Of a stretch of DNA of 55,702 bases, positions 4,074-49,019 are shown one piece after another. The notes beneath the pieces were generated by a model. That model was not told where the DNA came from and made no database searches. It was given only the letters and a program-made list of their open reading frames with translations. The position numbers and the translations under genes were made by a program. Numbering within the stretch: position 1 is the first letter of the stretch; each line of letters opens with the position of its first letter. Source of the stretch: Candidatus Curtissbacteria bacterium RIFOXYA1_FULL_41_14 (lineage in GTDB: Bacteria; Patescibacteriota; Microgenomatia; Curtissbacterales; GWA2-41-24); NCBI GenBank assembly GCA_001775095.1, contig MFCA01000002.1, positions 1 to 55,702 of the forward strand. Direction: 5' to 3'.

Positions 4074-4635
4074 AAGTGATAATATCGCGGAGAAAATCCC
4101 AAGGAGGTCAAAAGTAAAGAAACTCTATAAATTAAATCATCAAATCTCAGCCAAAGAGCTAAGAGTTATCGACGAGGAAGGTAAGCAAATAGGAATTTTA
4201 TCACTTTCAGAAGCTTTGAAAAAAGCTCAATCGGCAGAAGCTGATCTTGTAGAAATTGCACCGGATGCTCAGCCTCCAGTTGCAAAAATAATTGATTTTA
4301 AAAAATTTAGATATTTAGAGGAGAAAAAGCAAAAAGAGGCCAGAAAACATACTAAACAAACGGAACTAAAAGAAGTCAGGTTTTCCCCTTTTATCGGAGA
4401 GCATGACTTGCAGACAGCACTTGAAAAAGTCAAGAAGTTTATAGCTGAAGGACATCTTGTAAAAATATCTGTAATTTTTAAGGGAAGACAAATGGCCCAT
4501 ACAGAATTCGGGCCTAAACTTCTAGATAGAATAATGACGGATCTTTCGCAAATCGCGCAGTCGGAAAGAGAAGCAAGATTTGAAGGACGCAGATTTGTTA
4601 CAATAATCAGGCCAGTTAAGGGAGCCAGTAGTTAG
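4033..4635 (+). CDS. infC: Translation initiation factor IF-3 (true start uncertain, probably non-canonical near 4111-4146)
   Basis: KLNHQISAKELRVIDEEGKQIGILSLSEAL...DLVEI..DAQPPVAKIIDFKKF aligns with IF-3. AAGGAGG sits at 4101-4107, downstream of the thrS stop. Confidence 0.9.
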   Translation: MQTKFTKILITNYKSDNIAEKIPRRSKVKKLYKLNHQISAKELRVIDEEGKQIGILSLSEALKKAQSAEADLVEIAPDAQPPVAKIIDFKKFRYLEEKKQKEARKHTKQTELKEVRFSPFIGEHDLQTALEKVKKFIAEGHLVKISVIFKGRQMAHTEFGPKLLDRIMTDLSQIAQSEREARFEGRRFVTIIRPVKGASS

Positions 4636-4708: not shown

Positions 4709-4903
4709 ATGAAACAAAAAACCAAAAAGGCGGCAGCCAAAAGATTTAAAATTACGCCAAAAGGAAAAATTTTAAGAGGACGCCAAATGGCAGGCCATCT
4801 TAAGATGGCGAAAACAAAAAGTGCCAAAACACGGTATAAGAGGAAGGCCTTTGTCTCTAAACCTGAGAAGAGAAGGATAGAAAGGCTAATGCCGTATAAT
4901 TAA
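4709..4903 (+). CDS. rpmI: Ribosomal protein L35
   Basis: 64-aa basic protein ...AAAKRFKITPKGKILRGRQMAGHL... with the usual position after infC. Confidence 0.93.
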   Translation: MKQKTKKAAAKRFKITPKGKILRGRQMAGHLKMAKTKSAKTRYKRKAFVSKPEKRRIERLMPYN

Positions 4904-4905
4904 AA

Positions 4906-5130
4906 ATCCTAAACTCTAAATTCTAAATCCTAAATAAATCCAAATGAGGTAAAATACAAAATTCAAAACAGGAGGATAACTATATTGTTCGAGCCCTTCG
5001 TCGAAACTCAGGGCGAGAACTAAAACTTCTCACTTTGTTCGAAGACTAAAAGGGTTTTAACTGACTATCTTTCTTTTGAACATTTGAATTTTGAAATTGT
5101 TTAGAGTTTAGAATTTAGAATTTAGAATTT
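4906..5130. repeat. Composite nested palindrome: heptamer-type arms flanking a GC-richer core hairpin
   Basis: Left arm atcctaaactctaaattctaaatcc...caaaattcaaaaca. Right arm ttttgaacatttgaattttgaaattgtttagagtttagaatttagaatttagaattt. Core ttgttcgagccc...gggcgagaac recurs at 37925-38010 and 52862-52963. Confidence 0.8.
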
Positions 5131-5138
5131 CTTAAACA

Positions 5139-5480
5139 ATGAGAGTCAAACGCGGTGTAACAAGTCATAAAAGACATAAGAAACTTCTTGCTTCTGTCAA
5201 GGGCTATCGCGGCGGAAGGTCAAAACTTGTTAAAGAAGCCAAACAGGCTCAAATTCATGCCGGGGCTGATGCTTATCGCGGCCGCAAAGAGAAAAAACGT
5301 CAAATGAGAGGCCTCTGGATTACCCGAATAAACGGCGCGTTAAAACCTTACGATATTTCTTACAATCAATTCATAAATAAACTAAAGTCCAAAAAAATTG
5401 CTCTCGACCGCAAAATCCTCTCTCAAATCGCCATCGAAGACCCCAAAGCTTTCGAAAGCATCGTCAAAAAAATCATCTAG
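5139..5480 (+). CDS. rplT: Ribosomal protein L20
   Basis: MRVKRGVTSHKRHKKLL...GYRG matches the L20 N-terminus. Confidence 0.95.
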   Translation: MRVKRGVTSHKRHKKLLASVKGYRGGRSKLVKEAKQAQIHAGADAYRGRKEKKRQMRGLWITRINGALKPYDISYNQFINKLKSKKIALDRKILSQIAIEDPKAFESIVKKII

Positions 5481-5624: not shown

Positions 5625-6647
5625 ATGGACAAAGAATTAAAAGAATTATTGACCCATGCCCGCGCAAGAATCGGCTCTGTCAATACCACCAAAGATCTCG
5701 ATCAGGTCTACATTGAAATCTTTGGCAAAAGCGGCGAGTTCACAACTCTTACCAAACAACTTGGACAAGTTCCTAAATCAAAAAGACCAAAAATCGGTCA
5801 GCTTCTCAATGAAGCAAAAAAGGAAATAGAGCAACATCTTGAAAAAAAGCGTTCAGCGTTAAGCGCTGGGCGTTCAGCAACTCCTATTGATATTACAGCC
5901 CCCGGCGAAAAGACCAAAATCGGCCACCTTCATCTCGTTTCCCAGGCAATCGAAGAAATCGTCTCCATTTTTAAACAGCTTGGGTTCTCACTTCAAAGTT
6001 ACCCGGAAGTCGAATGGGACTGGTATGCCTTTGAAACTTTAAATATGCCCAAGAACCATCCTGCCAGAGACGATTGGGAAACATTTTTTATAAAATCCAA
6101 ACCTCATCCTAATTTAGGAAATCAAGTATTGACCCCGCACACCTCAAACGGCCAGGTTAGAGAAATGCTAAGAGTCAAAACACCTCCAATTAGAATGCTC
6201 AACATTGCCCGTTGCTACCGAAGACAAATTGATATTTCACATACGCCAATGTTTCATCAATTTGAAGGCCTTTTGGTTGACAAAAATGTTTCGATTCCGG
6301 ATCTTAAGGGTACTTTTGATTATTTCACCACCAGATTCTTTGGTCCCGAACGAGTTACCAGATTAAGACAACATCATTTCCGTTTCACCGAACCATCATT
6401 TGAAGTTGACGTCACTTGTGGGGTTTGTATGGGACGTGGCTGCCGATTCTGCAAATCCGGCTGGGTGGAACTTGGAGGATCCGGTATGGTGCATCCGAGA
6501 GTCCTAAGAGCAGGCAAAATCGACCCTGAAGTCTATAGCGGTTTTGCTTTTGGCTGGGGAATCGAAAGAACAATTGCTATGAAAACCAACATAGGCGACA
6601 TCAGACTTTTGTACCAAAATGATATTAGGTTCTTAGAACAGTTCTGA
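5625..6647 (+). CDS. pheS: Phenylalanyl-tRNA synthetase alpha subunit
   Basis: HPARD..(D)TFF, class II motifs FRFTEPS.E.D, GFAFG.G.ER. pheT follows. Confidence 0.95.
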   Translation: MDKELKELLTHARARIGSVNTTKDLDQVYIEIFGKSGEFTTLTKQLGQVPKSKRPKIGQLLNEAKKEIEQHLEKKRSALSAGRSATPIDITAPGEKTKIGHLHLVSQAIEEIVSIFKQLGFSLQSYPEVEWDWYAFETLNMPKNHPARDDWETFFIKSKPHPNLGNQVLTPHTSNGQVREMLRVKTPPIRMLNIARCYRRQIDISHTPMFHQFEGLLVDKNVSIPDLKGTFDYFTTRFFGPERVTRLRQHHFRFTEPSFEVDVTCGVCMGRGCRFCKSGWVELGGSGMVHPRVLRAGKIDPEVYSGFAFGWGIERTIAMKTNIGDIRLLYQNDIRFLEQF

Positions 6648-6650
6648 GAT

Positions 6651-6784
6651 GAAAATTCGAAATACGAAGCACGAAATTCGAAACAAATTCCAATTTTCAA
6701 AATACAAATGTTCAAGACGTTTTGAATTTAGGTCATTTGAATTTAAGTATTGTTTAGGATTTAGAATTTAGGATTTCGGATTTA
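6651..6784. repeat. Long imperfect palindrome (aaattcgaaa-type arms, centre acgtttt); same family as the carB insertions
   Basis: gaaaattcgaaatacgaagcacgaaattcgaaacaa...caagacgttttgaatttaggtcatttgaattta...ggatttagaatttaggatttcggattt. The 5' half is near-identical to 47299-47390. Confidence 0.85.
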
Positions 6785-6791
6785 AAATATT

Positions 6792-13328: not shown

Positions 13329-13370
13329 AAACTTCAATTGCTAGCCTACATACTGAATTTTTCGAACTCA

Positions 13371-13405
13371 ACTTTACACTTTACACTTTACACTTTACAC
13401 TTTAC
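13371..13405. repeat. Heptanucleotide tandem array (actttac x5) ending 5 nt before the recG ATG
   Basis: Five perfect units read directly. Confidence 0.95.
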
Positions 13406-13410
13406 CTGTT

Positions 13411-15492
13411 ATGGACCCAAAAACTCCTGTTAGTCAGCTTTCCGGAATAGGCAAGTGGTATTCCCAAAAGTTAAAACGCCTAGAAGTCAAAACCTTAGAG
13501 GATCTTATCTATCACTTTCCTTTCCGCTGGGATGATTTTTCTACTATTGCTAATATAAACAATATTACTCCCGGCGAAAAATTAAGCATTCAGGGCATTG
13601 TTTGGAAAATTCAAAATATCAGAACTCGCATGGGCAAATTTGTAACCTTGGCAACGATTGCCGATCAGTCGGGAACAATTGAAGTTATCTGGTTCAATCA
13701 GCCCTTTTTAACAAAAATCATCAAAGCCGGAATGCAAATTTCTCTTGCCGGCAAAGTTGAAGTTGAGGGATCTAAACCAAAACTTGTTTCCCCATCCTAC
13801 GAAATCATCAAAAGCCCTGATGTGCCAAGCTATACCACCCCAGGGGTGTCTTACGTTGACACCTCAGGAAAAGGAGTTTCCCAGACGCTACACACAGGAA
13901 GACTTGTCCCTATTTATCCGGAAACAGAAGGTGCTACTTCAAAATGGATTCGTGCCAAAATCGCTAAATATCTGCCGATTTATACAAAAAACCTGAAAGA
14001 TCATTTACCCAAAAAAATTATGGAGGAGGAACAGTTGGAAAAATTGGAATCAGCGCTAAAAAAAATCCATTTCCCAAAAAATTATGGTGAGGTTAGTCAG
14101 GCAAAGCTGAGATTAGCCTTTGATGAATTATTTCTAACACAACTAATGGCAATTTTGGCAAAAGAAAAATGGAAACAAAATCGCAAAGCGTTACCAATGA
14201 CTATAGACAAATCCAAAATTCTGACCCTTACCAAAGTCCTTCCCTTTAATCTAACCGACGCTCAAAAAAGGGCCTGCCGCGAAATTGCCAAAGATATGCA
14301 AAGGGAAATCCCCATGAATAGACTTCTGGAAGGCGACGTCGGTTCCGGAAAAACGGTTGTTGCCGCTATTGCGTCCTATATCGCATTTCTCAATGGGACA
14401 GATACTCTTGTAGCTGCTCCTACTGAGATTCTAACTTTCCAGCATCAAAAAACTTTTGAGGAAATCCTCTCGCCCTTTAAAGTGACAGTCGGCATTTGGA
14501 CAGGAAGCCGAAAGATCAAAGGTGACATTACGTGCGGCACTCACGCCCTCTTAACTACTTTTAAACCGCAAAAACAAGTCGGATTGGTAATAGTTGACGA
14601 ACAACACCGTTTCGGGACAGCTCAAAGGGCTAAGCTTTTTATGGATCAGTCCGGCAAATTAACTCCTCACCTTTTAACGATGACTGCAACGCCAATTCCC
14701 CGAACCCTTGCCCTGACTCTTTATGGTGATCTTGATTTATCAGTACTTGACCAAATGCCGACAGGCCGTCAAAAAATTGCCACCTTTGTCGTTCCAAACA
14801 ACAAGAGAAACGATGCCTATGGGTTTATTGAAAAAGAGATATCGGCCGGCAGGCAAGCATTTATTATCACACCATTTGTCGAACCTTCAGAAACAATGGC
14901 TACGGTCAAGGCAGCAACAGAAGAATTTACAAAACTCAAGAAAAATTTTTCTAAAAAAGTCAAACTTGGCCTTTTGCACGGCCGCCTTAAATCCAAAGAA
15001 AAAGAAAAAATCATCAATAACTTTAAAAACGTAAAGGTCGATATTTTAGTTGCCACTCCAGTCGTCGAAGTCGGAATTGACGTTCCCAACGCCACTATTA
15101 TGATGATAGAATCTGCTGACCGTTTTGGACTAGCCCAGCTTCATCAACTCCGCGGCCGGGTTGGCAGAGGAAAGTATAAGTCTTATTGTTTGCTTTTTAC
15201 CGATTCCCTACAAGAAAGTTCTATCGGCCGTCTTAAAAGCATGGAAAGACTTCAAATAGGATTTGAATTAGCCGAAGCTGATCTTGAAATGCGCGGACCG
15301 GGCGAAATCTTTGGACTTAAACAATCCGGCTTTGTCGATTTTAAGATTGCCAGTCTTTCCGATCATCAACTAATCGAAAAAACCCAAAAAGCCGCCCAGA
15401 AAGTTGCAAATTCCGATCCCACCCTCAAAAAATACCCGCTCCTTGCTGAAAAAATTTCTCAACTCTCAGCCGATTACTCCCAACCAAACTGA
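13411..15492 (+). CDS. recG: ATP-dependent DNA helicase RecG
   Basis: Wedge/OB N-terminus and helicase motifs GDVGSGKT, DEQHRFG, TATPIPR, QLHQLRGRVGRG. Confidence 0.95.
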   Translation: MDPKTPVSQLSGIGKWYSQKLKRLEVKTLEDLIYHFPFRWDDFSTIANINNITPGEKLSIQGIVWKIQNIRTRMGKFVTLATIADQSGTIEVIWFNQPFLTKIIKAGMQISLAGKVEVEGSKPKLVSPSYEIIKSPDVPSYTTPGVSYVDTSGKGVSQTLHTGRLVPIYPETEGATSKWIRAKIAKYLPIYTKNLKDHLPKKIMEEEQLEKLESALKKIHFPKNYGEVSQAKLRLAFDELFLTQLMAILAKEKWKQNRKALPMTIDKSKILTLTKVLPFNLTDAQKRACREIAKDMQREIPMNRLLEGDVGSGKTVVAAIASYIAFLNGTDTLVAAPTEILTFQHQKTFEEILSPFKVTVGIWTGSRKIKGDITCGTHALLTTFKPQKQVGLVIVDEQHRFGTAQRAKLFMDQSGKLTPHLLTMTATPIPRTLALTLYGDLDLSVLDQMPTGRQKIATFVVPNNKRNDAYGFIEKEISAGRQAFIITPFVEPSETMATVKAATEEFTKLKKNFSKKVKLGLLHGRLKSKEKEKIINNFKNVKVDILVATPVVEVGIDVPNATIMMIESADRFGLAQLHQLRGRVGRGKYKSYCLLFTDSLQESSIGRLKSMERLQIGFELAEADLEMRGPGEIFGLKQSGFVDFKIASLSDHQLIEKTQKAAQKVANSDPTLKKYPLLAEKISQLSADYSQPN

Positions 15493-16226: not shown

Positions 16227-16245
16227 TGATACCCAACTATTTTAG

Positions 16246-16280
16246 TCAATTGCCAATTGTCAATTGTAAATTGTAAACTA
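16246..16280. repeat. Heptanucleotide tandem array (tcaattg/taaattg, 5 units)
   Basis: Read directly. Confidence 0.85.
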
Positions 16281-16283
16281 TTT

Positions 16284-23310: not shown

Positions 23311-23331
23311 CTCTAATTCCAGTTTAGGTTT

Positions 23332-23371
23332 GTCAATTGTCAATTGTCAAATGTCAAATGTTAATTGTTAT
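23332..23371. repeat. Heptanucleotide array (gtcaatt x2, gtcaaat x2, gttaatt, gttattt)
   Basis: Read directly. Confidence 0.9.
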
Positions 23372-23983
23372 TTAATATTGCCTTAGCGAAATCGTCGTCT
23401 CAAACTTGACATTTGCCAAAAAATCCGCGCGTGAAGGAGCATCAATTCCTTGATTGACCATAAAGCTTATGGAAACAATAGGAGGCGACCCGGAGGCCGT
23501 AGGAATTATTTTAAATCCTAAAGGGGGAGTACACGTAATATCTACTCCCGAAATAGTATCTCTACTTGTAATTGATTCATAGTCACCCGTATTAATATCT
23601 GTTCCGGGAGAGACATCTGCTACACCAATCCACCCATTGCTGGAAGGCGACGCAATACTATTGAAACATGCTATATAGAGTGAGTTTCCATCTGTCTTAG
23701 TTATATTAACCCCGCTTGATGAACCATTTGGTGTAATTTCAACAGCTGCGGTTGCACCTCGAATTTGTTTCTCCAGCAAATCCAGAACTGCCTGGCCGTT
23801 TTGCTTAACCTCTGCAGTCACATTAGCCTGATTTGTACCTTTTAAAACATTGGTTAAGAATAAAAGAGTAGCTCCTACGGCCGTAACCAGTATGCCCAAA
23901 ACAACCAGCAGCTCGATCAGGGTGAAACCATCCGAAAATTGAAAATTGAAAATTGAAAATTGAAAATTTTTGCGGAAGGGCAT
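23372..23983 (-). CDS. Minor pilin (prepilin-type N-terminal cleavage/methylation domain; PilW/PulJ-like)
   Basis: ...DG|FTLIELLVVLGIL class III signal. The 19-aa leader MPFRKNFQFSIFNFQFSDG is encoded by a heptamer array. Confidence 0.8.
   Translation of the reverse strand: MPFRKNFQFSIFNFQFSDGFTLIELLVVLGILVTAVGATLLFLTNVLKGTNQANVTAEVKQNGQAVLDLLEKQIRGATAAVEITPNGSSSGVNITKTDGNSLYIACFNSIASPSSNGWIGVADVSPGTDINTGDYESITSRDTISGVDITCTPPLGFKIIPTASGSPPIVSISFMVNQGIDAPSRADFLANVKFETTISLRQY
23934..23968. repeat. Heptanucleotide array (gaaaatt x5) inside the minor-pilin leader coding region
   Basis: Five perfect units between the only in-frame ATG and the G|FTLIE site. Confidence 0.95.
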
Positions 23984-24082: not shown

Positions 24083-24589
24083 TTAATCATTGCTGGAAAG
24101 AATAGTCTGATTAATGACCGATTGGGTACCTCCAGAATCAGTCCATGAGACAGTAACTGTAACCTTTTTCTGATCGGAATTCGCTCCAATCTCGATCTTT
24201 AAAGATCGATCAAAAACAACTTGATTTAAAAGTACCGACTCGGGACAGTCAACAGAAGGATCTGATGAATTATTTGCCAGTTTCCAATTATTTGGATTAA
24301 TATCGGCAGTATTAGCAAGCACCCAGCAGTCGTTATTTGCCAAACTAGCAAAACCCTGCCTGTCGCGCAAAATTCTAACTTGCTCAATATTTTGCTGAAC
24401 CAATTTTGTAGCCTGGGAAGTATTTTTAGCGGTCCTTGATGCTCTTTGGACAACCAAAGTCGTAGTTACCAAAGCCACTGCCAAACCGACAATCACAGCC
24501 ATGGCGATAACAACCTCAATAAGCGACTGCGCTGACTTACTGACAACTGACAACGGACAACTGACAACTGACTTATGGCTTGCTTTCAT
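24083..24589 (-). CDS. Minor pilin (PilV-like)
   Basis: ...KSA|QSLIEVVIAMAVIVGLAV has Glu at +5. The ATG at 24589 overlaps the upstream gene end. Confidence 0.7.
   Translation of the reverse strand: MKASHKSVVSCPLSVVSKSAQSLIEVVIAMAVIVGLAVALVTTTLVVQRASRTAKNTSQATKLVQQNIEQVRILRDRQGFASLANNDCWVLANTADINPNNWKLANNSSDPSVDCPESVLLNQVVFDRSLKIEIGANSDQKKVTVTVSWTDSGGTQSVINQTILSSND
24533..24575. repeat. Heptanucleotide array (tgacaac-type, 6 units) in the minor-pilin leader coding region
   Basis: tgactta c tgacaac tgacaac ggacaac tgacaac tgactta, translated as HKSVVSCPLSVVSKS. Confidence 0.9.
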
Positions 24590-26702: not shown

Positions 26703-27239
26703 TTATGGAGTACAACTACCTGAAGTAATCTCTTGGACTTTGCCAATTGCCGATTGCCAACACCAAAGCCAATCACCATCACCCGAAGTCGGGTCTTCAA
26801 GCGTAGCATACAGCGCCGCTTCACTATTTGCGGGAGCGCCGCCAAGAGTCAAACAATAATCATCACCGGTAGGTCCGGTTGGTACTTCTTTTAAATCACC
26901 ACTTGTAGTTAGAGCAGTTAAGCCTCCGCTGGTCCCGCAGCCGTCCGGCGTAGGATAATAACCATTTCCGCGGCTGACATAATAAGCATCCAGAGCGTGG
27001 GCTAGGGTTCCGATATTAGTTTTTCGAGAAGAATCCCGTGCTTGCCTTTGTCTTTTGGCGGGATTAACCGCCACTAGAACTGCTGCGGCCAGAATACCTA
27101 GAATACCAATAACTACCAGAAGTTCGATCAGTGTAAAACCATGCCGCCAACGGCGGCAGTTCACGGTTTTGAGTTCACTGTTCACGGACTTTTGTTTTCT
27201 GTAAGCTATGAACTGTGAACTATGAACTAGATTGGGCAT
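26703..27239 (-). CDS. Type IV pilin paralogue 2 (start uncertain: ATG 27239 or GTG 27164)
   Basis: RHG|FTLIELLVVIGILGILAA. C-terminus EDPTSGDGDWLWCWQS...TSGSCTP. Confidence 0.85.
   Translation of the reverse strand: MPNLVHSSQFIAYRKQKSVNSELKTVNCRRWRHGFTLIELLVVIGILGILAAAVLVAVNPAKRQRQARDSSRKTNIGTLAHALDAYYVSRGNGYYPTPDGCGTSGGLTALTTSGDLKEVPTGPTGDDYCLTLGGAPANSEAALYATLEDPTSGDGDWLWCWQSAIGKVQEITSGSCTP
27159..27230. repeat. Hairpin whose arms are inverted heptamer arrays (agttcay / rtgaacn) in the pilin 5' region
   Basis: Minus strand reads agttcat agttcac agttcat agcttac agaaaac aaaagtc cgtgaac agtgaac tcaaaac cgtgaac. Confidence 0.8.
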
Positions 27240-27243
27240 TACT

Positions 27244-27303
27244 TCAATTGTCAATTGTCAATTGTCAATTGTCAATTGTCAGTAGTCAGCAGTCAGTAGT
27301 AGT
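27244..27303. repeat. Longest heptanucleotide array: tcaattg x5 then tcagtag/tcagcag x3
   Basis: Read directly, in the divergent gap between the pilin and the 27316 gene. Confidence 0.95.
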
Positions 27304-37838: not shown

Positions 37839-37890
37839 CCGAAGGGCAAATTGAAAATAGGCAAAAGGGGAAGTAGAATGGATGGGTAAA

Positions 37891-38047
37891 TTCAAAATTC
37901 AAAAGGCAAAAGTCAAAATTATGGTAAGTTCTCGATCCTTCGATGAACTCAGAACTCGAACAATAACATATTCTTCGAGTGAGTCAGCGAAGTGACGAAT
38001 CGAGAAGTTTCCTTACTTTTGACTTCTAACTTATAACTTTTAACTTA
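37891..38047. repeat. Composite nested palindrome: inverted heptamer arms (ttcaaaa.../...ttataac ttttaac) around a GC-richer core
   Basis: The core gttctcgatccttcgatgaactcagaactcgaacaata...ttcttcgagtgag is homologous to 4985-5046 and 52862-52963. The right arm abuts the holB ATG. Confidence 0.8.
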
Positions 38048-41382: not shown

Positions 41383-41453
41383 AAATGATCTTTTCGTCCA
41401 AAGTTATCGAAGAACTAAAATAAAAGCTAATGCAATTAGCTTCCATAACTTGT

Positions 41454-41488
41454 GACTTTTAACTTATAACTTATAACTTTTAACTTAA
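41454..41488. repeat. Heptamer array (gactttt aacttat aacttat aactttt aacttaa) ending 5 nt before the gyrA ATG
   Basis: Read directly. Confidence 0.9.
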
Positions 41489-41493
41489 ATAAA

Positions 41494-44145
41494 ATGGCTG
41501 ATATCGGCAAAATCCAACCAGTTGAAATAATCGAGGAAATGCAAAGGTCTTATCTGGACTATGCAATGAGCGTTATTGTTGCCCGGGCGCTGCCGGATGT
41601 TCGCGACGGCTTAAAACCTGTGCAGCGAAGAATTATCTATGCGATGCAGAGAATAGGTGTTACCCATAGCGCCCGCTACACTAAAAGCGCCAAGGTTGTC
41701 GGTGAAGTCTTAGGTAAATATCATCCCCACGGCGATGCTCCTGTCTACGAAGCGCTTGTTAGAATGGCTCAAAATTTCTCGATGCGTATACCGCTCATTG
41801 ATGGCCAAGGTAACTTCGGGTCAGTTGACGGTGACCCTCCGGCTGCTATGCGCTATACGGAAGCCCGCCTGGCCCATATCACCGAAACTTTACTTTACGA
41901 TCTTGACAAAAACACGGTCGATTTTGCCGACAATTTTGATGGTACTCTAAAAGAACCCATATTTTTACCGGCACTTTTACCAAATCTGTTAATTAATGGG
42001 GCATCCGGCATCGCCGTTGGTATGGCTACCAACATTCCTCCTCATAATTTGGGCGAAATTATTGACGCCGTGATCTGCTTAATCAATAACCCTGAAAGTT
42101 CTGTCGAAGGTCTGATGGAAAGTGTCAAAGGCCCGGATTTCCCGACCGGCGCCCAAATTTACGATATAAGCGAGATAACTGCTGCCTATGCTACCGGCCG
42201 GGGCAAAATTTTAATGCGCGGCAAAGCGGATATAGAAGAAACTAAGGCAGGTAAATTCCAAATAATAATCACCGAAATCCCTTACCAAGTCAACAAAGCA
42301 ACTCTGGTTACTAAAATTGCCGATCTTGTCAAAGAGAAAAAACTGGATGGCATCTCTGATTTGCGCGACGAATCAGATCGAAGAGGCATGCGTATAGTTA
42401 TTGAGCTCAAACGGGATGCCAGACCTCAATCAGTACTTAACAATCTTTATAAACATACGGCGCTGCAACAGTCCTTCCCGGTCAATATGGTAGCTCTTGT
42501 CGATGGTACTCCTCAAACCCTTACGCTCAAGATGATCCTAGAGGAGTTTATCAAACACCGTCAAAAGGTCATCATACGAAGAAGCCAGTTTGAACTTGAT
42601 GAAGCTAAGAAACGCGCCCACATTCTGGAAGGGCTAAAAATTGCCGTAGACAACATCGACGCTGTTATCGAAACAATCAAAAAGAGTAAAGACCCTGCTG
42701 AGGCTAAAGTCAACCTAATGCAGAAGTTTAAATTAACGGAAGTCCAAGCGCTGGCTATTCTTGACATGCAGCTTAAAAGACTTGCTGCCTTGGAAAGGCA
42801 AAAAATTGAGGAGGAATTAGCGATGACTTTGGAAGAAATTGCCTACTTGGAAGAACTGCTTAAAAGCCCCGAGAAGATACTTGAAGTTGCTAAAGGAGAA
42901 CTTTTAAAGATTAAAGAGCGCTTCGGTGACGACCGACGAACTCGAGTTTTCAAACAAAAAATAGGTGAATTCTCCGAAGAAGACCTCATTGCAAATGAAG
43001 CAACAATTGTGACTATCACCGTCGGCGGCTATGTCAAAAGACAGGATATTGGTTCATTTCGCACCCAAAGACGGGGAGGCAAAGGCATCTCTGGTATTAC
43101 TACAAAAGAAGAAGACACTGTTGCCCATCTTTTCGCAGCCTATACTCACGATAATTTACTTTTCTTTACCGACAAAGGACGAGTCTTCCAACTTAAGGTC
43201 TACGATCTCCCGGAAAGTTCGAGAACATCCAAAGGTGTAGCCATCGTCAATCTTTTGGATCTTTCCCAGGACGAAAAAGTCCTTTCAATCTTGCCTGTCA
43301 AGAAAAATAAAGAAGCAACAACTAACAACTACAAATATGTACTGATGGCTACCAAAAATGGGGTGGTTAAAAAAACCGAAATTAACCAGTATGCATCAAT
43401 TAGAAGATCAGGAATTATAGCCATAAAATTGTCAGGTGATGACCAACTGCGCTGGGCAAAATTAACTACCGGGGATAATATTGTTTTTCTGGTTTCGAGA
43501 CACGGTATGTCCATTAAATTTGACGAGAGAGATGTCCGGCCAATGGCACGGGATACGATGGGTGTGCGCGGCATAAAAATTAAGACGGGCGATGAACTTA
43601 TCGGAATGGACGTTATCGACAAAAATGACATTAAAGCCGACCTTCTAGTTGTTACCGACAAAGGAATTGGTAAAAAAACTCAGGGTTTAGCCTGGCCAAA
43701 ACAGCTAAGAGGCGGCGTTGGCGTAAAGGCTGCCAACCTTACAGACAAAACCGGCGAAATCGTCTGCGCCCAAATTCTGACCAAAGCAGATGAAGCACTA
43801 ATTTTAACTTCTCAAAAAGGTCAAGTAATGAGAACGACCTTAAGATCAATCCCCAGACTGACGCGCGATACCCAAGGTGTAATTATCATGAGACTTGGGT
43901 CAGACGACAAGGTGGCTGCGACGACTGTCATTCAAAAAAAACAAGACGAGGAGCAAATACCAGACGTAACCGTTAAATCTGTGCCAAAAAAGCCAAAAAT
44001 TACACCTAAGACTCAGATAAAAATTAAATCCCAACAAACAATCAAAGTTAAATCTAAACCTAAAGCCTATTTTAGGGCTAAATCGAAACCACAAGTGAAA
44101 ACAAAACTAAAAATAAAAGTTGTTAAAAAGGCAAAAAAGAGGTAA
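41494..44145 (+). CDS. gyrA: DNA gyrase subunit A with a Lys-rich C-terminal tail
   Basis: [16 protein letters not shown], active-site region [10 protein letters not shown], beta-pinwheel CTD. The last ~60 aa are KxK-rich. Confidence 0.97.
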
Positions 44146-44343: not shown

Positions 44344-45558
44344 ATGCAAAATAAAAAAGCAAGATTAATTCTCGAAGACGGCACCATCTTTAAAGGTAAT
44401 GCAGCCGGCAGTCAGACCTCTTCAGCAGGCGAAGTAGTTTTTGCAACAGGCATGGTCGGTTATGATTTATCGCTTACCGACCCTTCTTACGCCGGCCAGA
44501 TATTAACCTTCACATACCCTTTAATCGGTAATTGGGGTGTACCGCCAAAAGAGTTTTGGGAATCGGATAAAATCCAAGTTGCTGGTCTTGTAGTCAGCGA
44601 CTTAACTACAAAACCCAGCCATTGGCAATCGCAACAAACTCTTGATGAATGGCTGAAAGAAGAAGGAGTCTCTGCAATTTTTGGTATAGATACAAGACTC
44701 TTGACCCAAAAATTACGAGATAGGGGAGTAATGCTGGGTAAAATTGTAGTTGAGGATCAGGATATCGAATTTTATGATCCGAATGCCGAAAATCTTGTCG
44801 CCAAAGTTTCGCCGAAAGAACCAAAAATCCTCAAATCCGAAATCCGAAATCCGAAATCCGAAATCCGGGTCGGCCTATTAAATTGTGGAGCGAAAAGAAA
44901 TATCCTGCGCAGTCTTCTTGCTCGAGGAGTAACCGTTTATGATCTCCCATGGAATTTCGATCCGTTCGTTTCGGACGGGTGGCAGTCGTGGAAAGGTTCC
45001 CGACAGCGCGGACCCCGCACTTTTACAAATTCTGATCAAAATCACAAATATCAAACCAACCTAAAAGTGCGGGGGAGCACTGACGGGAAGGAAACGACTG
45101 ACAGGACCCGTCCGGAATTCCCCAAACTTGACGGCCTGGTCATTTCCAATGGTCCGGGAGACCCTAAAATGGCCAAAGAGACCATCAATATTATCAAAAA
45201 AGCTTTAAAAAAGAAGATCCCAACATTCGGAATATGTCTTGGCAACCAGCTTCTGGCTTTAGCGACCGGGGGAGATACTTACAAATTAAAATTCGGCCAT
45301 CGGGCACAAAATCAACCGACTATTCAAGCCGGAACCAAACGCTGCTACATCACCACTCAAAATCATGGCTTTGCGGTCGACGAGAAAAAAATGCCAAAAG
45401 GCTTTAAGAGATGGTTTCATAATGCTAACGATAATACTAATGAGGGAATAATCCATGAGAATCTCTCATTTTTTTCCGTCCAATTCCATCCGGAAGCCAG
45501 TCCCGGGCCAACAGATACCGAATGGCTCTTTGATTACTTTTTGGAGAAATTTAAATGA
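44344..45558 (+). CDS. carA: Carbamoyl-phosphate synthase small (glutaminase) subunit, carrying two in-frame repeat insertions
   Basis: ARLILEDGTIFKG, GAKRNILR, SNGPGDP, GICLGNQLL, VQFHPEA. Confidence 0.95.
   Translation: MQNKKARLILEDGTIFKGNAAGSQTSSAGEVVFATGMVGYDLSLTDPSYAGQILTFTYPLIGNWGVPPKEFWESDKIQVAGLVVSDLTTKPSHWQSQQTLDEWLKEEGVSAIFGIDTRLLTQKLRDRGVMLGKIVVEDQDIEFYDPNAENLVAKVSPKEPKILKSEIRNPKSEIRVGLLNCGAKRNILRSLLARGVTVYDLPWNFDPFVSDGWQSWKGSRQRGPRTFTNSDQNHKYQTNLKVRGSTDGKETTDRTRPEFPKLDGLVISNGPGDPKMAKETINIIKKALKKKIPTFGICLGNQLLALATGGDTYKLKFGHRAQNQPTIQAGTKRCYITTQNHGFAVDEKKMPKGFKRWFHNANDNTNEGIIHENLSFFSVQFHPEASPGPTDTEWLFDYFLEKFK
44833..44867. repeat. Heptanucleotide array (aaatccg x5) in frame inside carA
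   Basis: Five perfect units plus a degenerate unit at 44825-32. Translated as LKSEIRNPKSEIR. Confidence 0.95.
44971..45116. repeat. GC-rich ~146-nt imperfect palindrome in frame inside carA
   Basis: The left arm tcggacgggtggcagtcgtggaaaggttcccgacagcgcggaccccgcacttttac pairs with the right arm ctaaaagtgcgggggagcactgacgggaaggaaacgactgacaggacccgtccgga. Confidence 0.9.
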
Positions 45559-48500
45559 GAAAAATCCTTCTTCTTGGATCCGGAGCTTTAAAAATCGGCC
45601 AAGCCGGCGAGTTTGATTATTCCGGATCGCAGGCAATTAAAGCTCTTAAGGAGGAAGAAATTAAGGTAATTTTAATTAACCCAAATATCGCCACAGTCCA
45701 AACATCCGAAGGCTTCGCAGACCAAGTCTATTTCTTACCTGTTGAAACACACTTCGTCAAAGAAATCATCAAGAAAGAAAGACCCGAAGGTATTATTCTT
45801 TCGTTTGGAGGACAAACCGCCTTAAATTGCGCTCTGGAACTTGCAAAATTAAGAATACTAGAAAAATATCGAGTTAAAGTTCTAGGGACCCAAATAGACA
45901 CAATTGAAAAAACCGAGGATAGGGAACTTTTCAATGAAACTTTGAGAAAAATTGGTCTGTCAATTCCAAAAAGTGTTGCGTGTAAAAGTTTAAGCCAGGC
46001 GGAAATTGCTATCGGCAAAATCGGTTATCCTGTTATCGCGCGATGCGGTTTTTCTTTAGGAGGTCAGGATTCACAAGTCATTTTCAATAATACTCAGCTG
46101 AAAGAAGCTGTCATCAGGGCTCTTTCCAAATCTCCACAAGTTCTAATTGAAGAATACTTAGAAGGCTGGAAAGAAGTGGAGTACGATGTAGTCAGAGACA
46201 AGTATGACAACTGTATTACTGTCTGCAACATGGAAAATGTCGATCCGATGGGTATTCACACCGGCGAATCAATCGTTGTCGCTCCTTCGCAAACTCTGAA
46301 TAATTTTGAATATCATAAGCTTCGGGAAATCGCCATCAAAGTGATCCGTCACCTAAAAATAGTCGGGGAGTGCAATATTCAGTTTGCTCTAAACCCCCGT
46401 CCGACAAACTCTAAATCCGAAATCCTAAATTCTAAACAATCTCAAAATCCAAATGACCTAAATTCAAAACGTTTTGAGCATTTGAATTTAGAAAATTCGG
46501 ATTTGTTTAGAAATTCGGATTTAGAAATTAGAAATTACCTCGATTATAGAATTATCGAGGTTAACGCTCGTCTTTCTCGAAGTTCTGCCCTGGCTTCGAA
46601 AGCAACCGGTTATCCATTGGCTTATATAGCAGCCAAATTGGCACTCGGATATTCGCTGACCGAACTTAAAAATACCGTTACAAAAAAAACCATAGCCTGC
46701 TTTGAACCTGCCCTCGATTATCTGGTTGTCAAAATTCCACGCTGGGATCTGGGTAAATTTCTAAAAAGCGAAACGCAAATCGGACCCTCTATGCAATCTG
46801 TGGGAGAAGTAATGGCAGTAGGACGCAAATTCGAAGAAGCAATTCAGAAAGCAATCCGCATGCTTGATATCGGACTCGAAGGTATTTTGGACAAACGCGC
46901 CCCAATCTCCAAGTATCAAAAACCCACCCCCTGGCGAATTTTCTCCGTGGCAAAAAGTCTGGCGGCCGGAGAGGCTGTCGACAAAATTTACAAGGCAACC
47001 GGCATCGACCCATTTTTTCTGGAAAAGATCAAAAACATAGTAGAGTTTGAAAAAAATATTAAAGCCTGTGATACTCGTGATACTCTTACTACCCGTGATA
47101 CTCTTCTTTTAGCCAAGCAACTTGGATTCTCTGATAAACGATTGGCAAAACTTACAAATTCAGCTGAGGAAAAGATTAGGAAACTGCGAAAAAAATATGG
47201 CATCTATCCGAAAGTCAAGCAAATTGACACTCTAGCTGCCGAATACCCGGCCCAGACGAATTACCTCTACCTTACATACAATGGAGAATCGGATGATATA
47301 AATTCGAAATCCAAAGCACGAAATTCGAAACAATATCAAATTTCAAATAACAAAAATTTTAAACGTTTTGAACATTTGAATTTAGAGAATTCGGATTCGT
47401 TTAGAAATTCGAAATACGAGAGCGTATTTTCGGAAAACCGAAAAGTGGAAATTAGAAATTCCCAAAACGATCGCAAGGTGATCGTTTTGGGATCTGGTCC
47501 TTACCGCATTGGGTCTTCCGTTGAATTTGACTGGTGCTCGGTAACATGCACCCAGACCGCTTCAAAAAATAACCTCTCCACAATAATTGTAAACTGCAAC
47601 CCGGAAACAGTCTCTACTGATTACGACATGGCCGACAGGCTTTATTTCGAAGAACTCTCTTTGGAAACTGTTCTGGAAATTTACGAAAGGGAGAAACCCT
47701 TTGGAATAATTCTCTCGATGGGTGGCCAAACTCCCAATAACCTGGCTACAAGTCTTTCTAAAAACGGAGTCAACATTCTGGGTACTAAATCAACTTCTAT
47801 CGATCAGGCAGAAGATCGAAATAAATTCTCAAACCTTTGCGATAAACTGTCAATAGACCAACCGGTCTGGGCTAAATTAAAAAATCTAAAAGAAGCTCTC
47901 ACTTTTGCCGAAAAAATCGGCTATCCGGTTCTAATCAGACCTTCCTACGTTCTTTCCGGAGCAGCTATGAACGTCGCATTCAGTTCTGAAGATCTCGCGA
48001 TATATCTTAAGTTAGCCTCCCGTATCTCTAAGGAATATCCTGTTGTGATCTCAAAATATTACGAGGAGGCTAAAGAGATCGAAATTGACGCAGTTGCGCA
48101 AGAAGGCCAGATTCTATGTTCTGCGATTTCCGAGCACGTTGAAAATGCCGGAGTCCACTCGGGAGACTCAACCATGGTTTTACCTGCTCAAAAACTCTAC
48201 CTCAAAACGGTTACTCAAATCGAAAATATCGCCCAAGAAATTGCCAAAAATTTAAAAATTACGGGCCCTTTTAACATCCAATTTTTGGCAAAAAATAATC
48301 ACGTCATGGTGATTGAATGCAATCTGCGCGCATCCCGAAGTTTTCCGTTTGTTTCCAAAGTAACCGGAGTCAACTTCATAGAGGTTGCAACAAATGCAAT
48401 CCTTAACATTAACCAAATACCAAATACTAAATACCAGATACTAGACTATGTCGGCGTCAAAGCTCCCCAGTTTTCTTTTTCCCGTATTAAAGGTGCTGAT

Positions 48501-49019
48501 CCGATTTTAAGGGTTGAAATGACCTCAACCGGAGAGGTTGGCTGTTTTGGCGATGACATCTATGAGGCCTTTTTAAAATCGCTTTTGGCAACTGGCGTAA
48601 CTCTACCCAAGAAATCGGTTTTTGTATCCCTGGCCGGCGACGAAAATAAAGTAGATTTTTTAGACAGCGCCCAAACTTTAAAAAAACTTGGCCTAAAAAT
48701 TTTCGCCACCGATGGAACCAGCAAATTTCTTAAATCGAAAGGCATAACCTCTACCAAGCTTTACAAAATTCACGAGCACAAGAAACCAAACGTTCTGGAT
48801 TTCCTGCACAATAAAAAAATCGACCTGGTGATTAATATTTTCGACCCCTATTTCAAAAAAGAATTTGATGACGATTATCTAATCCGCCGCTCTGCAATCG
48901 ATTTTGGTATCCCGCTTCTAACAAATATGCAAACCGCCGAGCTTTTTGTCAAAGCAATTTCTCTCAAAAAACTCTCTGATCTTAAAACTCTTCCCTGGTC
49001 ACAATACATCACTCCCTAG
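45555..49019 (+). CDS. carB: Carbamoyl-phosphate synthase large subunit, carrying two in-frame palindromic repeat insertions
   Basis: ILLLGSGALKIGQAGEFDYSGSQA, two ATP-grasp halves (IEVNARLSRSSALASKATGYPLA; IECNLRASRSFPFVSK) and an MGS-like C-terminal domain. Confidence 0.97.
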   Translation: MRKILLLGSGALKIGQAGEFDYSGSQAIKALKEEEIKVILINPNIATVQTSEGFADQVYFLPVETHFVKEIIKKERPEGIILSFGGQTALNCALELAKLRILEKYRVKVLGTQIDTIEKTEDRELFNETLRKIGLSIPKSVACKSLSQAEIAIGKIGYPVIARCGFSLGGQDSQVIFNNTQLKEAVIRALSKSPQVLIEEYLEGWKEVEYDVVRDKYDNCITVCNMENVDPMGIHTGESIVVAPSQTLNNFEYHKLREIAIKVIRHLKIVGECNIQFALNPRPTNSKSEILNSKQSQNPNDLNSKRFEHLNLENSDLFRNSDLEIRNYLDYRIIEVNARLSRSSALASKATGYPLAYIAAKLALGYSLTELKNTVTKKTIACFEPALDYLVVKIPRWDLGKFLKSETQIGPSMQSVGEVMAVGRKFEEAIQKAIRMLDIGLEGILDKRAPISKYQKPTPWRIFSVAKSLAAGEAVDKIYKATGIDPFFLEKIKNIVEFEKNIKACDTRDTLTTRDTLLLAKQLGFSDKRLAKLTNSAEEKIRKLRKKYGIYPKVKQIDTLAAEYPAQTNYLYLTYNGESDDINSKSKARNSKQYQISNNKNFKRFEHLNLENSDSFRNSKYESVFSENRKVEIRNSQNDRKVIVLGSGPYRIGSSVEFDWCSVTCTQTASKNNLSTIIVNCNPETVSTDYDMADRLYFEELSLETVLEIYEREKPFGIILSMGGQTPNNLATSLSKNGVNILGTKSTSIDQAEDRNKFSNLCDKLSIDQPVWAKLKNLKEALTFAEKIGYPVLIRPSYVLSGAAMNVAFSSEDLAIYLKLASRISKEYPVVISKYYEEAKEIEIDAVAQEGQILCSAISEHVENAGVHSGDSTMVLPAQKLYLKTVTQIENIAQEIAKNLKITGPFNIQFLAKNNHVMVIECNLRASRSFPFVSKVTGVNFIEVATNAILNINQIPNTKYQILDYVGVKAPQFSFSRIKGADPILRVEMTSTGEVGCFGDDIYEAFLKSLLATGVTLPKKSVFVSLAGDENKVDFLDSAQTLKKLGLKIFATDGTSKFLKSKGITSTKLYKIHEHKKPNVLDFLHNKKIDLVINIFDPYFKKEFDDDYLIRRSAIDFGIPLLTNMQTAELFVKAISLKKLSDLKTLPWSQYITP
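46408..46537. repeat. ~130-nt imperfect palindrome (aaatccgaaa/ctaaattc arms, centre aaaacgtttt) in frame in carB
   Basis: tctaaatccgaaatcctaaattctaaacaa...cctaaattcaaaacgttttgagcatttgaatttag...aaattcggatttagaaattagaaatt. Confidence 0.9.
47068..47103. repeat. Nonamer tandem repeat (gtgatactc x3 plus 1 degenerate) inside carB
   Basis: Translated as CDTRDTLTTRDTL. The gatact core also occurs in the trmD nonamer repeat at 19431-19467. Confidence 0.8.
47299..47461. repeat. ~160-nt palindromic element in frame in the carB inter-half linker; homologue of the intergenic 6651-6784
   Basis: taaattcgaaatccaaagcacgaaattcgaaacaatatcaaatttcaaataacaaaaattttaaacgttttgaacatttgaatttag... compared with 6651-6740. 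Confidence 0.92.

Follow-up and report, generated by a model that had tools for sequence, protein, structure and literature searches.

To our knowledge, palindromic repeats that lie in frame within genes have so far been a speciality of Rickettsia, for which the palindromic elements RPE-1 to RPE-10 were reportedly described by Ogata et al. in 2000. These are palindromes of about 100-150 bp, dispersed in a small genome. Many interrupt unrelated housekeeping genes without breaking the frame; one frame is readable, and the protein fold tolerates the added peptide (PMC10969869).

Several other systems bear on the locus described here. The STRR of cyanobacteria are tandem heptanucleotide arrays scattered in the genome, gene borders included. 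Quasipalindrome template-switch mutagenesis, which is said to be the work of Ripley and of Lovett and colleagues, is known for correcting short imperfect repeats; we know of no case in which it imports a 130-nt element. REPs are 20-40 bp long, G+C-rich and extragenic, with a GTAG/CGTC tag (PMC3733652). PARCELs, which occur in surface proteins of unknown function, are amphipathic domains of 25 residues in tandem (PMC2996958).

The present analysis finds the same phenomenon as in Rickettsia in the candidate phyla radiation, in the CarB of a tiny groundwater bacterium. The window, meaning the whole stretch of DNA analysed, is 55,702 nucleotides long, and the element occupies positions 46408-46537. 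With a probability of about 0.8, it is one copy of a dispersed, MITE-like palindromic family, which is read through in its only stop-free frame within a turn of CarB and tolerated there. It resembles the Rickettsia elements in being a 130-nt palindrome that folds far better than shuffled sequence (z = -5.4 for DNA and -5.9 for RNA; none of 200 shuffles did as well), in having four copies within 55.7 kb, and in lying in a loop predicted to be disordered; the family is in frame twice in carB, and also in carA, lepA and valS of other Patescibacteria. It differs from them in its host (Patescibacteria, here Candidatus Curtissbacteria, not Rickettsia), in arms made of tandem heptamers, in the mostly intergenic location of the family in many other phyla, and in that one Curtissbacteria CarB loop has been hit by about 15 palindrome families. 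Judged by anatomy and reading and not by sequence homology, the carB element would thus work like a Rickettsia palindromic element, and we do not file it as a member.

The other comparisons are less close. Bacterial MITEs (Correia, ERIC, Nezha, RUP) are likewise short, non-coding and multicopy with inverted-repeat ends, mostly intergenic and at times in frame in genes. However, the present element is one long palindrome with a variable number of arm units, and no consistent target-site duplication or partner IS was found for it in loci of up to 8 kb around the copies. REP/BIME sequences with their RAYT share the palindromic form, the high copy number, the lack of target duplication and occasional nesting; the carB element, by contrast, is 130 nt, A+T-rich and inside a gene. 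Heptamer arrays are shared with STRR, but the unit sequences differ, and in the present element the heptamers build both arms of a defined palindrome around a non-heptamer core that is conserved. PARCELs are also palindromic coding repeats spread over distant microbes, although the carB element, a single insert in a conserved enzyme and not a series of tandem surface-protein domains, is not one of them (PMC2996958).

The insert in the first ATP-grasp domain of CarB

The host gene and the parts of the insert are as follows.
45555-49019, forward strand: carB, open reading frame for the carbamoyl-phosphate synthase large subunit (1154 aa), host gene of the insert
46408-46537, forward strand: the insert itself, a heptamer-armed palindromic repeat read in frame and coding for about 43 extra residues (SKSEILNSKQSQNPNDLNSKRFEHLNLENSDLFRNSDLEIRN), defined by nhmmer, fold, frame and pLDDT
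46410-46439, forward strand: left outer arm, heptamer units AAACTCT AAATCCG AAATCCT AAATTCT AAACAAT, pairing with 46503-46532
46445-46504, forward strand: inner arms and centre, with the centre AAAACGTTTT at 46466-46475 and the conserved core CGTTTTGAGCATTTGAATTT within, defined by inverted repeat and family consensus
46503-46532, forward strand: right outer arm (TTGTTTAG AAATTCG GATTTAG AAATTAG A), an inverted repeat with the left outer arm

CarB is an essential enzyme at the core of the pyrimidine and arginine pathways, and the product of this gene matches CPS1 in the PDB and E. coli CarB at E = 0 and 1e-245. Around the insert the protein runs FALNP-RPTNSKSEILNSKQSQNPNDLNSKRFEHLNLENSDLFRNSDLEIRNYLDYR-IIEVNARLSRSS. 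The 130 nt of the insert are A+T-rich and form an imperfect palindrome in frame: the outer arms 46410-46439 and 46503-46532 are an inverted repeat of 30 nt (83% complementary), the inner arms 46445-46468 and 46481-46504 one of 24 nt (83%), and the centre is aaaacgtttt. Altogether the arms pair over about 55 nt; the element has the terminal inverted repeats and the small, gene-less size of a MITE. The frame in use is the only one of the six without a stop; the insert would then be translated, and the putative peptide includes FEHLNLENSDLFR.

The turn that holds the insert joins strands NIQFALNP and YRIIEVN of the first ATP-grasp domain. The insert comes a few residues ahead of the IEVN motif, which we take, from the biochemistry of the E. 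coli enzyme, to carry the ATP/Mg-binding residues. AlphaFold2 gives pLDDT values below 50 for residues 286-326, between strands 271-279 and 331-337, and predicts a disordered loop between two β-strands. In E. coli CarB there are 5 residues between NPK291 and V297, the equivalent stretch of human CPS1 is HPT-S-MEYCIIEV with a loop of 5 residues, and the 5-residue loop is also found in about 100 outgroup loci from outside Curtissbacteria. The shortest Curtissbacteria loops at the site read NPxPKxxxL, and LDYRIIEVNAR is kept in relatives that lack the insert. By this comparison the LDYR residues beside the insert read as native, and NPRP is probably native too, so that the inserted part would be about 42-45 residues (about 126-130 nt), and not 51. 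It is worth adding that an earlier note on this DNA had proposed an in-frame palindrome of about 130 nt centred on aaaacgtttt, placed in a surface loop and missing from unrelated CarB proteins. The sequence, the inverted repeats and the shuffle z-scores agree with the palindrome, the predicted structure fits the loop, and the short loops of the unrelated enzymes bear out the rest; its comparison with a 5-residue E. coli loop was right, but its count of 51 inserted residues was too high. The exact borders of the insert, and its age, we infer.

The insert is real and fixed in its species-level cluster, since six full-length variants from independent assemblies show no change within it. Among 120 CarB relatives, 70 have at least 12 extra residues at this same site. 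By sequence they sort into about 15 families, of which nearly all are palindromic, and 18 of the 22 distinct inserts fold with z below -3. Short deletion remnants, such as PKSGGSEFGN, PKWDPASHFSSLTS and PNSKRLEN, also occur. With so many mostly palindromic families, and remnants, at one loop, the conclusion is that the site is an insertion hot spot. A stop-free frame runs through the insert in every Curtissbacteria locus readable at the site (about 36). The colonisation of one CarB loop by about 15 palindrome families goes beyond the Rickettsia picture; it offers a concrete explanation for part of the length variation of patescibacterial proteins, and natural experiments on which enzyme loops bear 40-60 extra residues.

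A dispersed family of heptamer-armed palindromes

Alignment of 28 compact copies gave a family profile that takes in the heptamer arms, the inner arms and the core CGTTTTGANCATTTGAATTT. Members measure about 130 nt, with arms of CGAAATY/CTAAATY heptamers and the centre ...CAAAACG|CGTTTTGAACATTTGAATTT..., also given as CAAAACGTTTTG, and the consensus has one open frame per strand. The carB insert matches this profile over its full length (nhmmer 46402-46543, model positions 6-149, E 1.1e-28, 100 bits). The core is exact at 46465-46491 and recurs with 3 mismatches at 47359-47385, where 0 would be expected by chance. The profile search found four copies in the window, that is the carB insert and three more, and two of these, the linker copy and the copy near 6.7 kb, had been taken by the earlier note for the same element; both match the profile full length. 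The further copies, and a related array in carA, are listed here.
47297-47468, forward strand: second in-frame family copy, in the linker between the two CarB halves, with extra nested sequence at its 3' side (nhmmer 47297-47432, E 8.9e-25)
6644-6785, no strand assigned: full-length intergenic family copy, directly upstream of the ORF starting at 6792 (nhmmer E 4.3e-29)
4903-5139, no strand assigned: split family copy between rpmI and rplT, arms 4903-4966 and 5074-5139 with about 107 nt of other sequence between them (nhmmer half-matches)
44830-44866, forward strand: (AAATCCG)x5 heptamer array in frame in carA (KSEIRNPKSEIR), from repeat scan and carA alignment

The linker copy is open solely in the frame in use, has pLDDT below 50 for residues 585-638, and is absent at that site from the two closest relatives. 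The intergenic copy at 6644-6785 has stop codons in all six frames, and the split copy retains an inverted repeat (4904-4944 and 5090-5130, 83%). The carA array is one of 13 heptamer arrays in the window, some of them within genes, and at the same carA site another Curtissbacterium (L204) has a full element (3190-3366 of that locus).

Outside the window, nhmmer with the family profile located 157 places in 3.07 Mb, and the core pattern is present in at least 119 contigs. Most of these matches have heptamer arms; a handful, for example in Acinetobacter and Streptococcus, are bare and are chance matches. By record title, the hosts among Patescibacteria are Curtiss-, Roizman-, Falkow-, Berkel-, Shapiro- and Saccharibacteria and Peregrinibacteria, and the others are Planctomycetota, Desulfobacterota, Omnitrophica, WOR-3, Stahlbacteria, Aminicenantes, Verrucomicrobiota, Nitrospirae and Chloroflexota. 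A single family common to such distant phyla is again more than is seen in Rickettsia. About 85% of the scorable copies lie outside open frames. On intergenic copies, gene callers find only spurious ORFs of 36-76 aa. A peptide-profile search of 5.8 billion proteins, which missed the host genes and is a poor way of counting in-frame copies, returned only 37 small ORFs, most of them unnamed or named hypothetical protein and none with a Pfam family on the element peptide. The family explains many small 'hypothetical proteins' called on intergenic copies.

In annotated plasmids and phages, blastn with the consensus gave no match, to which the low-complexity filter may have contributed. A pattern scan of IMG/VR gave a single match, a core without arms and so a chance hit. 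No account of the heptamer-arm family came up in the literature searched, which was queried by sequence string and for MITEs or palindromic elements of the CPR or of Planctomycetes.

The preferred reading, that of a dispersed family copy tolerated within CarB, would then run as follows, its mechanics being those described for the Rickettsia elements. A family copy would enter the carB turn between two ATP-grasp strands and be read through in its only stop-free frame, giving about 43 hydrophilic residues, predicted to be disordered. The enzyme would tolerate them, and the copy would persist because it does. Selection for frame, together with a permissive loop, would act as a filter that leaves only such copies inside genes. 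The element presumably is, or was, mobile. No direct repeats were found at the ends of 69 full-length copies; TAAAT...ATTTA stands at both ends in only 11 of 52 copies, and a TA target duplication of IS630 type is unsupported, there being no TA flank. No transposase linked to the copies was seen in the loci of up to 8 kb around them, and the termini of the element are fuzzy because the number of heptamer units varies, so that classical transposition is not shown. A filled and empty pair of near-identical genomes was not found for the carB insert.

Hairpins at the 3' junctions

Both in-frame copies in carB are followed by a hairpin.
46537-46561, forward strand: 3'-junction hairpin of the carB insert, ACCTCGATTAT-aga-ATTATCGAGGT, native codons (Y)LDY / IIEV, from inverted repeat, relatives and codon tables
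47460-47492, forward strand: 3'-junction hairpin of the linker copy, TCCCAAAACGATC-gcaaggt-GATCGTTTTGGGA, left arm non-native SQND and right arm native VIVLG codons, with perfect stems in four species

At the carB insert, ACCTCGAT (46537-46544) and ATCGAGGT (46554-46561) make the perfect 8-bp inverted repeat that the earlier note had recorded, which extends to 11 nt with one mismatch. In carB, perfect hairpins of at least 8 bp are confined to three places, the element's own centre and the 3' junction of each insert; over the window their background frequency is 0.34 per kb. Both arms of the hairpin at the loop copy are native codons, CTC GAT TAT and AT(T/A) ATC GAG, that is LDY and IIE, which are mutually reverse complementary by the genetic code. 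The same hairpin potential is found in relatives with other inserts or none, and no codon covariation between the arms was apparent in the codon table, as judged by eye.

The linker copy behaves otherwise. Its junction stem is perfect over 13, 14, 12 and 10 bp in the window and in the relatives L200, L201 and L215, and in these four species the upstream arm changes in step with each species' synonymous VIVLG codons. Similarly, a copy in lepA of another patescibacterium ends in a 20-nt perfect palindrome. Its right arm is the native YILN codons, while its upstream arm, which is non-native, agrees with the codons chosen in that species. Over seven independent in-frame copies, a perfect inverted repeat of at least 8 bp is present at the 3' junction in 4 and at the 5' junction in none, against a background of 1.76% of random 47-nt windows. 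If the two copies from which the idea arose are set aside, 2 of 5 remain (p about 0.003, by hand arithmetic from the background rate). Among the four positives, valS copy b may owe its hairpin to another element nested at that junction; discounting it lowers the count to 3 of 7 (p about 2e-4). The sample is small and partly post hoc. Over the family as a whole, 129 of 148 copy ends have no junction stem of at least 6 bp. Insertion into the loop of a pre-existing hairpin was considered and is not supported, flank-to-flank pairing not being enriched.

The earlier note had held that both carB inserts end in a hairpin made with native sequence, had taken this as a hint of hairpin-templated insertion, and had raised the question whether such hairpins are systematic. 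The first of these survives for the linker copy, whose left arm is non-native, but not for the loop copy, where both arms are native. Templating is consistent with the linker copy, the lepA copy and four of the seven in-frame 3' junctions, though not with the carB loop copy. The hairpins are unusual within carB and enriched at in-frame 3' junctions, but they are missing from most family ends. Several in-frame copies that end in hairpins with host codons, and covary with them, have no counterpart in the Rickettsia picture.

Alternative explanations for the carB insert

These hairpins raise a tentative alternative, less probable than not and a widened form of the earlier note's idea, in which replication stalls at a native hairpin and the nascent strand copies a distant element or folds back before returning. 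Such template switching would need no transposase, would make no target duplication and would leave a junction hairpin that includes native codons. It would account for the restriction of long perfect hairpins in carB to the element centre and the 3' junctions, for the codon-tracking arms at the linker and lepA copies, for the excess at 3' over 5' junctions, for the variable termini without target duplication, and for the many unrelated palindrome families at one carB site; quasipalindrome template switching in particular would explain junction arms that are exact reverse complements of native codons and follow them. Against this, nothing is templated at the carB loop copy, where the hairpin could be a coincidence of DY/II codons; most family ends have no junction stem, flank-to-flank pairing is at background, and the in-frame sample carries the limits given above. 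Selection on an mRNA hairpin would yield identical covariation, and a non-heptamer core conserved across phyla suits a discrete element better than local templating. What the junctions do offer is a lead on transposase-free insertion at hairpins. The loop might also have grown in place by heptamer slippage and inverted duplication, which we consider quite improbable: the 13 heptamer arrays of the window, the bare array in carA, in whose place a relative has a complete element, and the fact that CG-type arrays are stop-free in every frame (worked by hand from the unit sequences) favour such growth, but the full-length family match, which includes the inner arms and the non-heptamer core, and the presence of the same core in the intergenic copies of the window and in other phyla argue for insertion. 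An intron- or intein-like sequence missing from the mature protein, or an assembly artefact, is very improbable. Intervening sequences are known in the rRNA of some Patescibacteria, and palindromes can cause assembly errors; yet the frame is stop-free at all of the roughly 36 readable Curtissbacteria loci, which speaks against excision because an excised sequence needs no open frame, there is no Rfam intron match, no intein blocks were seen by eye in the 43-residue low-complexity peptide, and the insert is identical in six independently assembled genomes. A self-splicing intron or intein was rejected on the same grounds.

It is also conceivable, if rather unlikely, that selection maintains the insert, and perhaps the neighbouring hairpin too, for its nucleic acid, whether as an mRNA or DNA structure or as a protein-binding site within carB, and that it is no tolerated passenger. 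The insert shares 82-88% identity with its counterparts at the same carB site in the relatives L218, L200 and L201, against 42-56% at flanking third codon positions, and within the element all codon positions are conserved alike. Over 46466-46570 the window agrees with L218 at 103 of 105 nt, where the gene-wide identity is 0.72 +/- 0.08, and double changes from G:C to U:A preserve pairing of the arms. This conservation exceeds what is expected of junk, and a purely selfish neutral passenger explains neither it nor the similarity of the family across phyla. However, in many relatives the site is filled by an unrelated insert, holds a remnant or is empty, which means that it demands no particular sequence. 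Conservation is far weaker in the left arm than in the right, a pattern that suits a recombination tract more than a constraint on the hairpin. The base composition of the host may be all that lies behind the CG-to-TA changes seen in both arms, and high identity would also result if members of the same subfamily had later inserted independently at the hot spot. With RNAalifold, 30 family copies yield only 12 consensus pairs, too few to judge covariation by, because the arms differ in unit number. Rfam, run at permissive thresholds on eight family loci and on the whole window, gave only spurious microRNA-like hairpins and one tRNA, and no promoter or terminator signal in the element rises above shuffles. 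A broader proposal, which we regard as doubtful, joins these ideas: Patescibacteria, and perhaps other phyla, would harbour palindromic elements that get into genes with no transposase, when replication switches template at a native hairpin; their 3' junction arms would be copies of host codons, and the elements would then be kept at the nucleotide level, with one family near-unchanged across at least ten phyla. If true, essential enzymes of ultra-small bacteria would acquire surface loops by a general route that has so far gone undescribed.

Matches to carB spanning 5 kb and 4 kb in L204 and L220, which might be taken for a large insertion, are carA plus a small ORF before carB. Split CarB gene calls in the species cluster are frameshifts near residues 400-440, unrelated to the inserts.

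The insert in CarB and its hot spot

The element lies within carB, with the following features.

44344-45558, + strand, carA (ORF)
45555-49019, + strand, carB (ORF)
46408-46537, + strand, imperfect palindrome found by inverted-repeat search
46410-46439 with 46503-46532, outer arms, 83% complementary
46445-46468 with 46481-46504, inner arms, 83% complementary
46537-46544 with 46554-46561, 8-bp inverted repeat ACCTCGAT/ATCGAGGT

The extra stretch that the earlier note quoted between FALNP and IIEVNARLSRSS of the window's CarB is confirmed, as are the ~130-nt palindrome and the 8-bp inverted repeat at its 3' junction. The palindrome is centred on AAAACGTTTT, and none of 200 shuffled sequences folded as well (z = -5.4 as DNA, -5.9 as RNA). 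E. coli CarB does have five residues at the matching position. The insertion itself, put at 51 residues, is shorter, at about 42-45, because LDYR, and probably NPRP, are native. Six full-length variants of the species-level cluster, taken from independent assemblies, agree in the insertion, which is therefore neither an artefact nor polymorphic in that cluster.

The closest CarB proteins carry the name Candidatus Curtissbacteria (Patescibacteria). In about 100 non-Curtissbacteria loci (Woesearchaeota, Ignavibacteria, Melioribacter and others) the loop from NIQ[FY]AL to DYR[IV]IEVNAR always has five residues, so that the insertion is not conserved in unrelated CarB. Human CPS1 reads HPT-S-MEYCIIEV at this site (site 1), and the minimal Curtissbacteria loop is NPxPKxxxL-DYRIIEV. 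An AlphaFold2 model of CarB (59 homologs, pTM 0.83) has pLDDT < 50 at residues 286-326, between strands 271-279 and 331-337; pLDDT is also < 50 at residues 585-638, the copy in the linker between the two CarB halves. The proposal of a mobile in-frame element in a predicted surface loop is supported. It is worth adding that the window's CarB scores 1141 bits against human mitochondrial CPS1 and 821 bits against E. coli CarB, and that its nearest non-CPR relatives are Woesearchaeota/Nanoarchaeota and Ignavibacteria/Melioribacter, an unusual distribution for this gene.

At least 12 extra residues are present at site 1 in 70 of 120 homologs. By peptide similarity the inserts group into about 15 families, among them F1, to which 46408-46537 belongs (17 members, the clustering having also taken in a few heptamer-type inserts lacking the family core), F2 (17) and F3 (10). 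Among 22 distinct inserts compared as DNA, 18 fold with z < -3. Short forms such as PKSGGSEFGN, PKWDPASHFSSLTS and PNSKRLEN retain just the two ends of a family, as expected after an internal deletion from a palindrome. CarB has two further hot spots, the inter-half linker (insert in 40/120 homologs) and residues 959-964 (24/120).

The window's two nearest relatives, L200 and L218 (~79% identity over conserved columns), and the relatives' loci L201 and L202 have a copy of the family that matches the window's in position, orientation and frame. Relatives at ~75% identity have other insert families, remnants or nothing, and site 1 has therefore been repeatedly gained, lost or replaced. L200 and L218 lack both the linker copy and the carA palindrome at 44969-45117; thus the content of such sites varies between related species. 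An unexpected result is that the window's site-1 copy is 82-88% identical to those of L218, L200 and L201, with identity even over codon positions; third codon positions of the flanking carB (600 nt) are only 42-56% identical. Over 46466-46570, which takes in the element's right half, the hairpin and the IIEVNA codons, the window and L218 share 103 of 105 nt, against a gene-wide identity of 0.72 +/- 0.08; their left arms are far more diverged. Such conservation could stem from a recombination tract, from selection acting on the nucleic acid, or from re-insertion at a hot spot at a later time.

A repeat family spanning many phyla

A family profile found 157 places in 3.07 Mb of DNA with nhmmer, including the following in the window.

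46402-46543, copy in carB, full length, E 1e-28
47297-47432, copy in the carB linker, E 9e-25
6644-6785, intergenic copy, E 4e-29
4903-4966 and 5074-5139, split copy

The carB, linker and ~6.7-kb sequences match one profile, which bears out the suggestion of a shared element. At least 119 contigs of a species-representative genome collection contain the core CGTTTTGANCATTTGAATTT, and among the matches listed most contigs have the same heptamer arms on either side of it. The consensus, from 28 compact copies, is AAATCCGAAATTCGAATATCGAAATCCGAAACAAATTC...CAAAATTCAAAACGTTTTGAACATTTGAATTT...ATTGTTTCGGATTTCGGATTTCGTGCTTCGGATTT, with CG-to-TA variants in low-G+C hosts. By record label the hosts are many Patescibacteria classes, Planctomycetota, Desulfobacterota, Omnitrophica, WOR-3, Stahlbacteria, Aminicenantes, Verrucomicrobiota, Nitrospirae and Chloroflexota. 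In several 8-kb loci two copies occur together. No family in Rfam corresponds to the repeat, and no description was found in the searchable literature. Gene prediction has put "hypothetical proteins" of 36-76 residues on intergenic copies, and the element peptide in them has no Pfam family.

In some copies 40-100 nt of unrelated sequence interrupts the centre, and others are a single half. The rpmI-rplT copy has ~107 nt of unrelated sequence between its arms (4967-5073), and copies in other phyla, such as those of Planctomycetaceae (L090, L153, L165), hold a conserved-looking central "cargo" of 40-70 nt. At loci L095, L112, L123, L085, L084, L088 and L132 copies are fused to or nested in other widespread hairpin repeats, for example GTCATTCCCGCGGAAGCGGGAATCC, a pattern that points to modular, nested palindromes across many phyla.

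About 85% of scorable copies lie outside any open frame. Patescibacteria alone yielded genuine in-frame copies in conserved proteins; besides those of the window's carB, they are as follows.

L110:245-392, LepA, within the GTPase domain before the DTPGH motif
L119:3808-3871 and 4520-4624, ValS, two partial copies
L204, carA of another Curtissbacterium
L082:1759-1849, a 1965-residue saccharibacterial protein

The consensus has one stop-free frame per strand. Each carB copy has a single open frame, the one used, and the intergenic 6.7-kb copy has stops in all six frames.

Junction hairpins and the mode of insertion

At the 3' junction of site 1 each hairpin arm encodes conserved residues: by the genetic code, CTC-GAT-TAT (LDY) is the reverse complement of ATA-ATC-GAG (IIE), and outgroups too keep DYRIIEV. 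The relatives' loci L004, L011 and L215, each with a different insert, have hairpins of 8-11 bp, and at L013 an 11-bp hairpin adjoins a degraded F1 copy. In a codon table inspected by eye, the D/Y/L and I/I/E codons showed no covariation. Given native arms, recurrence with other inserts and no visible covariation, the site-1 hairpin was not made by insertion. The earlier note's view of it as insert pairing with native sequence is thus not borne out, and templating is unsupported for the 46408-46537 copy.

The remark that both carB inserts end at a hairpin stands: carB has only three perfect hairpins of at least 8 bp, these being the element's own centre and the two 3' junctions, and the coincidence is not trivial. 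The linker hairpin has a non-native upstream arm (SQND...), which in each of four species exactly complements the VIVLG codons of that species; stem lengths are 13 bp (window), 14 bp (L200), 12 bp (L201) and 10 bp (L215). In lepA, native YILN codons form the right arm of a perfect 20-nt palindrome at the end of the copy. Among independent in-frame copies, 4/7 have a 3' junction hairpin and 0/7 a 5' one (background 1.76%); in valS copy b the hairpin could belong to another element nested there, and not counting it gives 3/7. Hairpin-templated insertion thus draws some support from these other copies. Junction hairpins are uncommon in the family as a whole: 129 of 148 ends have no junction stem of at least 6 bp, and flank-to-flank pairing is not enriched.

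The best-supported account is that the carB insert would derive from a selfish, MITE-like palindromic family, whose intragenic survivors would be insertions into the single open frame and a permissive loop, the same survival described for Rickettsia palindromic elements (PMC10969869). Like those elements, this one is palindromic and lies in frame in a gene, in a permissive loop; unlike them, it has a CPR host, heptamer arms, a phylum-spanning family and an insertion hot spot. Neither a target-site duplication nor a consistent TA flank was found at the ends of family copies, no transposase was seen in the loci around them, and no promoter or terminator signal in the element exceeded chance. An alternative still in play for how the elements move is template switching at hairpins: it would explain the missing target-site duplication, the hot spots common to unrelated palindromes, and the covarying junction arms.

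Inserts in carA and other repeats of the window

A second palindrome, richer in G+C and belonging to another family, lies in frame in carA (44969-45117) and adds about 50 residues (SDGWQSWKGSRQRGPRTF...GKETTDRTRPE) at a place that has 4 in human CPS1. It is open only in the frame used, and resembles the F3 inserts of CarB site 1 and the insert at the other carA site (site A) in L210. A heptamer array, (AAATCCG)x5, is also in frame at 44825-44872; other Curtissbacteria have here a full F1 element (L204:3190-3366) or palindromes of other families, and carA therefore has its own hot spot.

Further tandem heptamer arrays in the window
489-540
2274-2311
13365-13413
16242-16282
23326-23379
23928-23973
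24536-24577
27239-27301
41445-41490
48411-48446

Their units include TTTTCAA, CTTTACA, CAATTGT, AAAATTG, GACAACT, ACTTATA and AAATACC. Many lie at gene borders and some within ORFs, including the third carB site (48411-48446). A further long intergenic inverted repeat (37889-38046) has 53-nt arms that are 74% complementary and made of different A+T-rich short repeats, including ACTTATAACTT-type units. GyrA (41494-44145) has a C-terminal tail of about 60 lysine-rich residues.
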